Assembly: GCA_964476595.1 (NCBI GenBank) | Contig: CAYZCL010000133.1 | Coordinates: 179-64,178, forward strand | DNA length: 64,000 bases | Direction of reading: 5' to 3' | Source of the DNA: an uncultured Desulfobacteraceae bacterium | GTDB lineage: Bacteria > Desulfobacterota > Desulfobacteria > Desulfobacterales > JALSRD01 | Made by a program: the position numbers and the translations under genes | Shown: piece by piece, positions 10,410 to 12,311 of the stretch | Layout of the letters: the number at the start of each line of letters is the position of its first letter | Position numbering within the stretch: position 1 is the first letter of the stretch | Notes under the pieces: generated by a model | Database searches by the model: none | The model's input: only the letters and a program-made list of their open reading frames with translations | What the model was told of the DNA's origin: nothing

Positions 10410-10952
10410 ATGCATCACGACGACGACATGCTCCTGCGCGTCGCCCGGCTGGCGCGGGCCCTGCGCTTCTGCCGCCGGGATTCGGTCTTCTGCGAAGACC
10501 TGACCTTTTGGCAGTATTTCATCCTGGAGACCGTGGCGCGTCACGGCCGCCTGCCGCTGTCGCGGCTGCACGCCATCCTGGCGGTGGAAAAGAGCACCAC
10601 CACTCGCCTGGTGACACCGCTGGTCAAGCGCGGGCTGCTGACCCGGCAGAGGCGGTCCGGCGACGGGCGGGCCGTGGTGCTGGCCCTGACGGAGGCGGGC
10701 CGGGACGTGTGCCGGCGCATCCGCGACTGCGCCGCCGGCTACTTCGAAGCCGTGTCCGCCCGGATTCCGCAGGAGCGCCGTCAACAGGTATTCGAGGCTT
10801 TGGCCCTCTTCGCCGAGGCCCTGGAAGAAGCCGGGCCGGGCTGCTGCTCGCCCATGGGAGGACCTTTTCATGATTTCGACCCAAACCGCACAGACGGCGG
10901 AAAAGACGCCCGCCGGACCGACGGGGCCGACCCTGCCCGCCGCGGGCGGTGA
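10410..10952 (+). CDS. MarR-family transcriptional regulator, Cys-rich
   Basis: 180 aa with a winged HTH (..LSRLHAILAVEKSTTTRLVTPLVKRGLL..DGRAVVLALTEAGR..). It has seven Cys including a C-terminal GCC. Its 3' end overlaps the hgcA start by 83 nt. Confidence 0.8.
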   Translation: MHHDDDMLLRVARLARALRFCRRDSVFCEDLTFWQYFILETVARHGRLPLSRLHAILAVEKSTTTRLVTPLVKRGLLTRQRRSGDGRAVVLALTEAGRDVCRRIRDCAAGYFEAVSARIPQERRQQVFEALALFAEALEEAGPGCCSPMGGPFHDFDPNRTDGGKDARRTDGADPARRGR

Positions 10953-12030
10953 GTGCGGCTGCGCGTCCTGCCGCCCGCCGCGGTCGGACCAGCCCTTCGT
11001 GAGGGGTACAGTGGAGACGCCGGCGGGAAAAGTGCCGCGGGTGACGGCGCGTCTCACCGCCGCCGACCACCTCGGCCGCATCAAGGCGCGCTGGGGCGTG
11101 GGCCGCATGCACTACAGCGTGGACCCGGGGCTCTACGCCCTGGGCAACCCGGATGAAGACGCCCCGGTGCTGGTGACCGCCGGCTACAAGATGAGCTTCG
11201 ACTGCCTGCGCCGGGCGCTCCCCGGCCGCTCCGCCTGGATCCTGGTGCTGGACACCGCGGGAATCAACGTGTGGTGCGCCGCCGGCAAGGGCACTTTCGG
11301 CACCGCGGAAGTGATCCGGCGCATCGAAGCCTGCGGCCTTTCGCGCGTGGTGGCCCACCGCACCGTCATCCTCCCCCAGCTGGGGGCGCCCGGCGTGGCC
11401 GCCCACCAGGTCCGGCGCCGCTCGGGCTTCAAAGTCGTCTACGGACCGGTGCGCGCCGAGGACCTGCCCGCCTTCCTGGACGGCGGCCTGAAAGCCACGC
11501 CGGCCATGCGCCGCAAGACCTTCACCCTCGCCGAGCGCGCCGTGCTGGTGCCCGTCGAACTGGTCGGCGCCCTGAAGTACGCCCTGCTGTGCCTGCCGGT
11601 CTTCTTTGTCCTGGGCGGCCTGGGCGCCGAAGGCGCTTTCTGGGCGGCCGGCGCGTCCGGCGCCCTGTGGGCCGCCCTGGCCCTGCTGGCGGCCATCGCG
11701 GCCGGGGCCGTGGTCACGCCGCTGCTGCTGCCCTGGCTGCCGGGGCGGGCCTTCGCCCTGAAGGGCCTGTGGCCGGGCCTGGCGGCCGCCGCACTGTGGG
11801 CGCTTTTGCGCTGGCCGCGGGCCGCCGGTCCCGGCGACGTGGTGGAAATCATGGCATGGCTGCTGCTGATCCCGGCGGCCTCGGCCTACCTGGCCATGAA
11901 CTTCACGGGCGCCTCGACCTACACTTCGCGCTCGGGGGTCAAAAAAGAGATGCACTGGGCCCTGCCGGCCCAGATCGCGGCCGGGGCCGTGGGCGTGCTG
12001 CTGTGGACCGGCGCCCGCTTCCTGGCCTGA
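10870..12030 (+). CDS. hgcA: mercury methylation corrinoid protein HgcA
   Basis: 386 aa. It has an N-terminal ECGCASC and a CFeSP-like corrinoid domain with the diagnostic cap-helix motif NVWCAAGK (aa 133-140, nt 11266-11289; Cys codon 11275-11277). The C-terminal ~170 aa are strongly hydrophobic (4-5 TM). hgcB follows 8 nt later. Confidence 0.9.
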   Translation: MISTQTAQTAEKTPAGPTGPTLPAAGGECGCASCRPPRSDQPFVRGTVETPAGKVPRVTARLTAADHLGRIKARWGVGRMHYSVDPGLYALGNPDEDAPVLVTAGYKMSFDCLRRALPGRSAWILVLDTAGINVWCAAGKGTFGTAEVIRRIEACGLSRVVAHRTVILPQLGAPGVAAHQVRRRSGFKVVYGPVRAEDLPAFLDGGLKATPAMRRKTFTLAERAVLVPVELVGALKYALLCLPVFFVLGGLGAEGAFWAAGASGALWAALALLAAIAAGAVVTPLLLPWLPGRAFALKGLWPGLAAAALWALLRWPRAAGPGDVVEIMAWLLLIPAASAYLAMNFTGASTYTSRSGVKKEMHWALPAQIAAGAVGVLLWTGARFLA

Positions 12031-12038
12031 GGAGTTGG

Positions 12039-12311
12039 ATGATGCAGAAATTCGTTTACTTCGAAGACGTGGTGACCCTCTCCCTGAACCCGGAAAAGTG
12101 CGTGGGTTGCGGCCTGTGCGTGGAGGTCTGCCCCCACGCCGTGCTGGAGATGGCCAACGGCCGCGCCCGCATCGCCGACTTCGGTGCCTGCATGGAGTGC
12201 GGCGCCTGCGCCCGCAACTGCCCCGCCGCCGCCCTGGACGTGCGCACCGGCGAGGGCTGCGCCCAGGCCATCCTCAACGAGATGCTGGGCCGCAAGTGCG
12301 AGTGCTGCTGA
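12039..12311 (+). CDS. hgcB: mercury methylation ferredoxin HgcB (2x[4Fe-4S])
   Basis: 90 aa with CVGCGLCVEVCP and CMECGACARNCP motifs, an extra Cys in GEGC and a C-terminal CECC. A GGAG RBS lies upstream (ATG at 12039 or 12042). Confidence 0.9.
   Translation: MMQKFVYFEDVVTLSLNPEKCVGCGLCVEVCPHAVLEMANGRARIADFGACMECGACARNCPAAALDVRTGEGCAQAILNEMLGRKCECC

Follow-up and report, generated by a model that had tools for sequence, protein, structure and literature searches.

A MarR-family gene and operator-like palindromes ahead of hgcAB in an uncultured Desulfobacteraceae bacterium: a candidate repressor of the mercury-methylation genes

Introduction

To our knowledge, the gene pair hgcAB is the sole known genetic determinant of microbial methylmercury production. 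Its products, the corrinoid protein HgcA and the ferredoxin HgcB, are said to have been described by Parks et al. in 2013 from Pseudodesulfovibrio mercurii ND132 and Geobacter sulfurreducens. Here we analyse an hgcAB locus on a 64,000-nt stretch of DNA, called the window throughout, which comes from contig CAYZCL010000133.1 of a high-GC metagenome-assembled genome (MAG) of an uncultured Desulfobacteraceae bacterium. In particular, we argue from sequence comparison that the pair belongs to a three-gene unit, marR-hgcA-hgcB, which quite probably forms an autoregulated operon repressed by the MarR-family protein encoded in front. The HgcAB family itself is already known, as the original prediction for this DNA had also stated, and the window pair is an additional member from an uncultured lineage. 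The exact locus is also found in the public MAG GCA_054029475.1 and in an ENA assembly.

Purified HgcAB of ND132 uses S-adenosylmethionine (SAM) as methyl donor and not methyl-tetrahydrofolate; methylation of Co(I) gives methyl-Co(III) with Co-thiolate ligation, from which the methyl group goes on to Hg(II), the ligation of cobalt by the Cys of the cap helix has spectroscopic support, and HgcB carries two [4Fe-4S] clusters (PMC11588087). In vivo activity in ND132 also needs Cys73 of HgcB together with the C-terminal Cys pair, for which a role in shuttling Hg(II) or methylmercury has been proposed (PMC7305189). As for control, the ND132 regulator ArsR2 is co-transcribed with hgcAB, controls it, and responds to arsenic and S-adenosylhomocysteine, and its close homologues occur in hgc+ genomes only, always ahead of hgcAB (bioRxiv 10.1101/2022.10.17.512643). 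Other regulators have been mentioned at the same place. Namely, passages of McDaniel et al. (2020) describe a 'putative transcriptional regulator' that 112 genomes carry directly upstream of hgcAB; it is widespread among Deltaproteobacteria-type MAGs, and permafrost metatranscriptomes show it expressed together with hgcAB (PMC7438021). A passage of Zhang et al. (2023) notes that in two isolates, Dethiobacter alkaliphilus and Geobacter daltonii, genes of the MarR family lie upstream of hgcA (PMC10349881).

Results

Samples of related loci

Two samples of related loci were compared with the window. The first consists of 80 GTDB loci picked by HgcA similarity only, the second of 80 metagenome loci picked by MarR similarity alone, in a scan with an alignment of 20 hgcA-linked MarR sequences. 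Conservation was read from 32 HgcA homologues, 121 HgcB sequences from related loci and 93 non-redundant MarR sequences; the survey of the HgcA N-terminal motif covered 106 distinct related loci and the promoter consensus 86 loci. Among GTDB representative genomes the closest HgcA is 65-66% identical to that of the window, and a nearer relative, MAG GCA_054038835.1 (89% identical), is referred to below as L004.

The MarR-family gene and its linkage to hgcA

The upstream part of the locus comprises the following features.

10338..10343, plus strand: -35-like hexamer TTGACA of the predicted marR-hgcAB promoter (promoter scan)
10357..10371, plus strand: palindrome 1, GTTGTAGATTGCAAC, with one mismatch, containing the -10-like TAGATT at 10361-10366
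10378..10392, plus strand: palindrome 2, GTTGTAACCTACAAC, perfect, 21 nt after the first copy and past the predicted transcription start
10410..10952, plus strand: marR, MarR-family winged-helix regulator of 180 aa (Pfam PF01047), its last 83 nt overlapping hgcA

The regulator matches PF01047 at 45.4 bits (cutoff 24.6), and no specific NCBIfam model passes for it: the best, the Rv0880 family, reaches 50 bits against a cutoff of 220, while the AdcR_fam model (19.8 bits against 175) and the OhrR model (28.7 against 200) both failed. Its profile matches 87 MarR proteins in the PDB. The AlphaFold2 model, computed from an alignment assembled from database matches, shows the canonical helices and wing at a mean predicted local distance difference test (pLDDT) of 77.5, and Foldseek finds PcaV, YusO, Rv0880 and ZitR as structural matches. 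In a profile search at E <= 1e-25, the clade to which the protein belongs contains at least 256 sequence clusters, all of them from metagenomes or MAGs, and none bears a name more specific than 'MarR family'.

This clade is tied to hgcA in both directions of search. When loci were picked by HgcA, a MarR homologue 39-53% identical to that of the window stood directly upstream on the same strand in 22 of the 80 on a first count and in 19 on a stricter one. When loci were picked by MarR, tblastn placed hgcA directly downstream in 70 of the 80. The remainder comprises eight loci cut within 300 nt of the MarR gene, one (L088) in which the start of hgcA lies at the contig end, and one (L152) with a truncated hgcA remnant; adding the last two to the 70, hgcA is therefore found in 72 of the 72 loci that can be assessed. 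In other words, within the sampled data the clade was found only in front of hgcA. In L152, at about 3430-3760, an intact MarR gene with its palindrome is followed by an hgcA that stops after some 80 codons, likely a decayed operon.

Four cysteines of the regulator are nearly invariant among the MarR sequences compared: C28 and C107 (100%), C21 (98%) and C146 (94%). Further cysteines frequently adjoin them (C20 in 66%, C145 in 67%, C147 in 41%), so that the pattern reads as an RCC..(6)..C loop followed by a C-terminal CxCC, and the proteins often terminate one or two residues past the last Cys. In the AlphaFold2 model, C21 and C28 lie in the loop between alpha1 and alpha2, C107 in alpha5, and C145 and C146 in a disordered tail after alpha6. 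The residues K61-S-T-T-T-R66 of the recognition helix are invariant. Two peculiarities of the window lineage may be added here. Namely, the MarR proteins of the window and L004 share only 74% identity, as against 89-92% for HgcA, HgcB and the neighbouring methyltransferase and ATPase, and in this lineage the 34-aa tail of MarR past the CC motif is due solely to the reading frame running on into hgcA.

Promoter and operator-like palindromes

The predicted promoter, TTGACA-17 nt-TAGATT, matches the consensus at 10 of 12 positions in the promoter scan. In the 86 related loci, TTGACA keeps a constant distance from the palindrome, the consensus being TTGACA, about 16 nt and then TAGTTGTATnATACAACcATG. 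The core of the latter, GTTGTA-N3-TACAAC, is a perfect inverted repeat with a TATnAT -10 hexamer at its centre, and the conservation of this upstream DNA extends to genomes that share only about 40-50% identity in their MarR proteins. What is more, the palindrome follows the regulator: in the first sample it occurs in 16 of the 19 MarR-linked loci and in none of the 61 loci without MarR (591 kb scanned), and in the second sample in 67 of the 80. Within the window itself, the only perfect match lies at 10378-10392, the only one-mismatch match at 10357-10371, and the only two-mismatch match at 2614-2628.

In 74 of 87 loci the ATG begins 1 nt past the palindrome, which would make the A of that codon the predicted transcription start; we infer that the message in these relatives is leaderless. 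In the window, the second palindrome is followed by AGGA and the ATG at 10410. The tandem arrangement, with two copies 21 nt apart, is found in the window as well as in L004 and L086, its two closest relatives, and this shared layout suggests that the palindrome is a putative protein-binding site and not just a promoter core.

One can argue, on the other hand, that hgcAB is expressed constitutively or from internal promoters, with MarR regulating itself or some other target and the palindrome being simply a strong promoter core. The centre of the palindrome does double as the -10 hexamer, and the published coupling between hgcAB transcripts and methylation rate is weak. Nevertheless, the GTTG...CAAC flanks are conserved beyond what a -10 element requires, the window lineage has a second palindrome outside the promoter core, and the linkage of MarR with hgcA is exclusive in both search directions, the genes overlapping or abutting. 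In addition, a scan of the plus strand found no terminator-like site between marR, hgcA and hgcB. We thus consider constitutive or internal expression unlikely, and repression of the whole unit by MarR remains the reading that we prefer.

Identity of the HgcAB pair

The two genes downstream of marR, with the parts of HgcA on which its assignment turns, are listed here.

10870..12030, plus strand: hgcA, corrinoid protein of 386 aa (NF040863, Foldseek)
11266..11289, plus strand: cap-helix motif NVWCAAGK, aa 133-140, with the Cys136 codon TGC at 11275-11277
11548..12024, plus strand: HgcA transmembrane domain, aa 227-385, five predicted helices (AlphaFold2, hydropathy)
12039..12311, plus strand: hgcB, 2x[4Fe-4S] ferredoxin of 90 aa, or 89 aa from the ATG at 12042 (NF040864)

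The 386-aa HgcA and its cap-helix motif, as originally predicted, were found again in the list of open reading frames and in the raw sequence, and so were all features claimed for HgcB: its place 8 nt downstream, its 90 aa, two cluster motifs, a Cys in GEGC and a final CECC. The assignment of the pair to HgcAB has likewise stood up to a search with dedicated hidden Markov models, in which both proteins exceed the NCBIfam equivalog cutoffs. HgcA scores 458 bits against a cutoff of 275 for NF040863 (HgcA_corrinoid), its residues 55-384 spanning profile positions 1-324 of 325, and HgcB scores 109.7 bits against a cutoff of 99 for NF040864 (HgcB_ferredoxin). Pfam finds CdhD (PF03599, 42 bits against a cutoff of 24.8) on HgcA and, for the pair as a whole, only CdhD and Fer4 domains, as expected for the family. 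The warning that generic pipelines name such genes only as a CdhD-like protein and a ferredoxin holds in part: JGI-style labels are still generic ('acetyl-CoA decarbonylase/synthase gamma', 'PreA subunit'), whereas NF040863 and NF040864 now name the two proteins, and some database relatives already bear the name HgcA.

All 73 columns that are invariant among the 32 HgcA homologues are present in the window protein. In the cap helix, N133 to C136 and K140 are invariant, while A138 and G139 are conserved to at least 90%. The AlphaFold2 model of HgcA, based on the same homologues (pLDDT 78.6, predicted template modelling score 0.73), places the cap helix at 134-140 and C-terminal helices at 227-252, 257-289, 295-317, 321-348 and 354-385. 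A Kyte-Doolittle profile finds this C-terminal part hydrophobic, with three clear peaks that support at least three helices; because such profiles under-call Ala/Gly-rich helices, the count of five was taken from the model. The transmembrane region of the original prediction is thus upheld as a hydrophobic five-helix domain, with a length of about 160 aa in place of the 170 or so first given. The top Foldseek match of the model is 9a0b_A, a deposited model of the HgcAB complex of ND132 that was itself computed (45% identity, E 3.9e-19), and the next are corrinoid iron-sulfur protein (CFeSP) domains, with root-mean-square deviations of 1.6-1.9 A over about 124 residues.

In HgcB, which carries CVGCGLCVEVCP and CMECGACARNCP, Cys74 in GEGC and a C-terminal CECC, the two CX2CX2CX3CP motifs comprise C21/24/27/31 and C51/54/57/61. 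These eight cluster cysteines and Cys74 are conserved in all 121 HgcB sequences, C89 in 98% and C90 in 83%. The hgcA stop codon TGA occupies 12028-12030, so that 8 nt separate it from the hgcB ATG at 12039; a further ATG, at 12042, is better spaced from AGGAG at 12030-12034, and the 89-aa product starting there is the one called in public assemblies.

The relation of HgcA to CFeSP deserves a closer look, since one could propose that the pair is a non-methylating HgcAB-like paralogue, or a Wood-Ljungdahl protein of the CFeSP/AcsC type with a ferredoxin, and has nothing to do with mercury. Indeed, Pfam reports CdhD alone on HgcA, both the sequence and the fold of the soluble domain are similar to those of CFeSP, and there are weak sub-threshold matches to the model of HgcAB-like fusions (NF043039) and to PRK04165 (acetyl-CoA synthase gamma). 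Like the large subunit of CFeSP (AcsC/CdhE; PDB 2H9A, 2YCL, 4DJD), HgcA has a corrinoid-binding Rossmann-like domain with a cap helix, and by sequence the C-terminal corrinoid domain of that subunit is the only match in the PDB, which holds no experimental structure of HgcA. However, the match (E 2.7e-12, PDB 2h9a) covers aa 82-204 only, and in this alignment the N-terminal [4Fe-4S] domain and the TIM barrel of CFeSP are absent from HgcA. Cys136 stands opposite a Thr of the CFeSP sequence SVLTAWAAG, and CFeSP lacks the membrane domain that HgcA has. The two sub-threshold matches, at 192.7 bits against a cutoff of 285 for the fusion model and 68.9 against 306 for PRK04165, fail, the latter aligning to the last 120 or so residues of its model, whereas the HgcA equivalog cutoff is cleared by a wide margin. 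In addition, hgcA and hgcB are separate and unfused, and their products have the cap-helix Cys, five transmembrane helices, Cys74 of HgcB and its C-terminal Cys pair. The best homologues, far from being CFeSP subunits, have the transmembrane domain and an aligned cap-helix Cys. A mercury-unrelated pair is accordingly so improbable that we give it almost no weight.

In sum, the pair shares with HgcAB of ND132 and G. sulfurreducens a corrinoid domain with a cap-helix Cys (Cys93 in ND132), a five-helix membrane domain, and an adjacent two-cluster ferredoxin with an extra conserved Cys and a C-terminal Cys pair. Because the defining features listed in the literature are all present (PMC7305189), we file it as true HgcAB, a classification supported by every such feature that is open to sequence and predicted fold.

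Start codon and N-terminal cysteines of HgcA

The start of hgcA differs from the one on deposit, and two further features bear on it.

10856..10862, plus strand: Shine-Dalgarno-like GGGAGGA, 7 nt before the hgcA ATG, within the marR coding region
10954..10971, plus strand: N-terminal Cys cluster of HgcA, C29-G-C31-A-S-C34, 12 residues before QPF

The deposited call begins at GTG 11011 and gives a protein of 339 aa, which is why an exact look-up of the 386-aa product finds it not on record. The shorter call drops a conserved N-terminal Cys motif and the nearly invariant QPFVxG (aa 41-46), both of which lie within 10870-11010, upstream of the GTG. What is more, a beta-hairpin modelled with confidence at aa 44-58 straddles the deposited start, and the hgcA frame of L004 is similar from residue 1 on. 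Taken with QPFVxG and the GGGAGGA element, these points make the 386-aa frame a better choice than the deposited one.

An N-terminal extension of HgcA with CC or Cys-selenocysteine (CU) has been reported by Haft and Gwadz (preprint 10.1101/2022.07.06.499078). At the position of C29-G-C31..C34, our survey of homologous loci finds Cys-TGA, a probable Cys-selenocysteine, in 37, CC in 17 and CxC in 15. The CGC..C motif of the window is an all-Cys form of this element, unlike the Cys-selenocysteine reported for ND132 and Geobacter (10.1101/2022.07.06.499078), and the window HgcA is therefore not a selenoprotein. In loci L006 to L013 and in others, an in-frame TGA follows the Cys (GC-TGA-P) 13-19 codons upstream of QPF; this fits the reported selenoproteins and explains why many HgcA entries in databases are called at 353 aa.

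The downstream insert and a truncated second hgcB

Behind hgcB lie two features of a different kind.

12316..14696, no strand: low-GC (about 53-55%) insert of about 2.4 kb between hgcB and the P-type ATPase gene, absent from L004
14697..14934, plus strand: 5'-truncated pseudo-copy of hgcB in which Cys54 is changed to Arg, breaking the second cluster motif

The insert contains a ribbon-helix-helix antitoxin/ParE-like toxin pair, an HTH_3 gene and an open reading frame without a Pfam match (13424-14092, minus strand). It is flanked by a 238-nt direct repeat, at 12078-12315 and 14697-14934 (94% identical), and has the appearance of a Campbell-type, duplicative insertion at the hgcB 3' end. Could the insertion mark an operon on its way to inactivation? 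The duplication brackets a toxin-antitoxin insert, a cluster cysteine is missing from the second hgcB copy, and in the related locus L152 the MarR gene is intact but the hgcA behind it is truncated. Yet the full-length hgcB keeps every conserved cysteine and ends at a stop of its own, so that the pair was not inactivated by the insertion; hgcA and marR are undamaged too and lack none of their invariant residues, and the arrangement recurs in independently deposited assemblies. Decay of the locus therefore appears quite improbable. The truncated hgcB and the insert that precedes it, the MarR gene, the operator-like palindromes, the N-terminal Cys motif of HgcA and the shortness of the deposited hgcA call all go beyond what the original prediction contained.

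Neighbouring genes and the rest of the window

In L004 the gene order is a thi operon, an ACT-domain gene and a SAM methyltransferase gene (minus strand), then marR-hgcA-hgcB (plus strand), then genes for a P-type ATPase and an HTH_5 protein (minus strand). The class I SAM methyltransferase (9596-10246, minus strand) is divergent from marR, which is curious given that HgcAB takes its methyl group from SAM. It was rejected as a conserved part of the system, as it scores 57 against 155 for the DVU_1556 family and 38 against 180 for the corrinoid protein-associated methyltransferase CpaM, and is kept only in the nearest relatives. The genes for the 638-aa P-type ATPase and an ArsR/SmtB (HTH_5) protein lie at 14960-17294 (minus strand), a pair that adjoins hgcB directly in L004; the ATPase has an APC motif instead of the usual CPC and no obvious N-terminal metal-binding domain. 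Being syntenic in the closest relative only, the two genes are treated as neighbours and not as part of the module. The toxin-antitoxin genes were similarly dismissed as a counterpart of the archaeal-type 'TA regulator' mentioned in a passage of PMC10349881, since they lie downstream, in the insert that L004 lacks.

Elsewhere in the window, a thiamine pyrophosphate riboswitch (RF00059, 69 bits, 8978-9069, minus strand) precedes an operon for the biosynthesis and transport of thiamine (about 1.8-8.98 kb). At 36921-39110 there is a second cluster related to metal(loid)s, with genes for an ArsP-type permease, a regulator of the HTH_5 type and a small thioredoxin-like protein, and a further HTH_5 gene is found at 40611-41342. 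Finally, a low-GC island at 43500-52000 (43-53% GC), probably acquired horizontally, contains a fragment of a DDE transposase (44351-44824), an HTH_3 protein and an ATP-binding cassette (ABC) transporter of the Liv type, one permease of which is fused to an alpha/beta hydrolase (45983-47845). As its contents, the transposase fragment and the Liv-type transporter, are ordinary, it was rejected as a candidate for a hidden special system.

Discussion

The locus resembles ArsR2-hgcAB of ND132 (bioRxiv 10.1101/2022.10.17.512643) in having a small winged-helix gene directly upstream of hgcA on the same strand. The regulators are nonetheless different: ArsR2 belongs to PF01022 (HTH_5), the window regulator to PF01047, and a Pfam search finds no HTH_5 match on the gene upstream of the window hgcA. 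The HTH_5 gene at 16935-17294 stands beside the P-type ATPase gene on the opposite strand, unlike ArsR2. The window gene does share its position, immediately upstream of hgcAB, with the regulators in PMC7438021 and PMC10349881; the likeness is one of description, and they are probably of the same family as the MarR clade. The passages concerned in these two papers, as well as literature searches on hgcAB regulators, gave no description of an operator, conserved cysteines or exclusive linkage.

How would such a unit work? Comparison among related loci suggests that transcription would begin from a sigma-70-type promoter at 10338-10366. A MarR dimer would then probably bind the GTTGTA-N3-TACAAC palindromes, over the -10 element and the early transcript, and repress, until a signal acting on the four conserved MarR cysteines lifts the repression. 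Translation of hgcA is probably coupled to that of marR, because its ribosome-binding site and its first 83 nt lie inside marR, and hgcB would be read next, after 8 nt. As for the enzyme, the residues of the ND132 mechanism each have a counterpart in the window, and one can sketch the same chemistry by analogy. Namely, Cys136 of the membrane-anchored HgcA would ligate cobalt; Co(I) would take a methyl group from SAM, as in the purified ND132 enzyme, to give methyl-Co(III), which would pass it to Hg(II) and so yield methylmercury. The two-cluster ferredoxin HgcB would re-reduce the cobalt, and its Cys74 and C-terminal Cys pair would probably handle Hg(II) or methylmercury.

As to the signal, our leading guess, tentative as it is, would be a thiophilic metal(loid) or organometal such as Hg(II), methylmercury or As(III). 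Pairs of vicinal Cys on flexible tails are a typical trait of proteins that handle Hg(II) or As(III), among them the HgcB tail, the C-terminus of MerA, ArsD and some ArsRs. It is this vicinal-Cys pattern, together with the arsenic response of ArsR2, that makes us rank thiophilic metal(loid)s first, and the C-terminal CxCC tail of MarR resembles the tail of HgcB. Thiol oxidation through a disulfide switch seems to us not very likely, sensing through an Fe-S cluster has about the same small chance, and a signal of some other kind is slightly less probable than either.

It would be a bolder step, and one we offer with some doubt, to regard the whole MarR clade as dedicated sensor-repressors that detect soft metals via the RCC..C loop, C107 and the CxCC tail. 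The fold is that of 2-Cys OhrR and of AdcR/ZitR, and the cysteines sit in the sensing regions of these proteins (alpha1-alpha2, alpha5 and the C-terminus). In an hhalign alignment, C107 presumably lies no more than one helical turn from the Zn ligands in alpha5 of AdcR, whose sequence was checked by ligand numbering only. The AdcR ligand residues themselves are not conserved in the window MarR. AdcR/ZitR (Zn) are the sole characterized metalloregulators of the MarR family, and the other well-studied sensors use cysteine oxidation (PMC11672702). In the literature searched we found no characterized MarR with an all-thiolate set and vicinal pairs (RCC, CxCC).

Several points weigh against this picture. 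The whole of it is computational and concerns an uncultured MAG, and the promoter and operator calls in particular come from consensus matching and co-occurrence. The window marR has a predicted leader of 37 nt, unlike most of its relatives with their predicted leaderless messages, and this lineage may therefore depart from them in detail. For hgcA, 10870 is the best supported start, not a proven one. The conserved MarR cysteines do not by themselves identify a specific ligand, and the AlphaFold2 confidence is low for the C21-C28 loop (pLDDT about 64) and for the tail. What is more, hgcAB transcript levels predict methylation poorly according to published work, and the output of methylmercury may therefore depend little on regulation. 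Finally, the native function of HgcAB is debated.

What, then, does the locus mean for the family? One more uncultured carrier of hgcAB is a data point and not a concept. There are some practical lessons for annotation: the deposited hgcA is too short, many relatives carry an in-frame TGA, a probable selenocysteine codon, in the N-terminal motif, and a truncated hgcB may be miscounted in marker-gene surveys. The larger interest lies in two open questions of the field, namely how the expression of hgcAB is controlled and what the cellular role of HgcAB is. A regulator-operator pair that is exclusive to hgcAB in our sample, with an operator of 15-19 bp and four near-invariant cysteines, provides an experimental handle on the former, and it is relevant to the many deltaproteobacterial methylators, such as Syntrophales and Smithella, that live in peat, sediment and permafrost and have no ArsR-type regulator. 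Should the soft-metal reading prove true, this would be the first member of the MarR superfamily to sense soft metals and, beside ArsR2, a second solution to the control of hgcAB, recruited independently; the identity of the inducer would then reveal what HgcAB is for.

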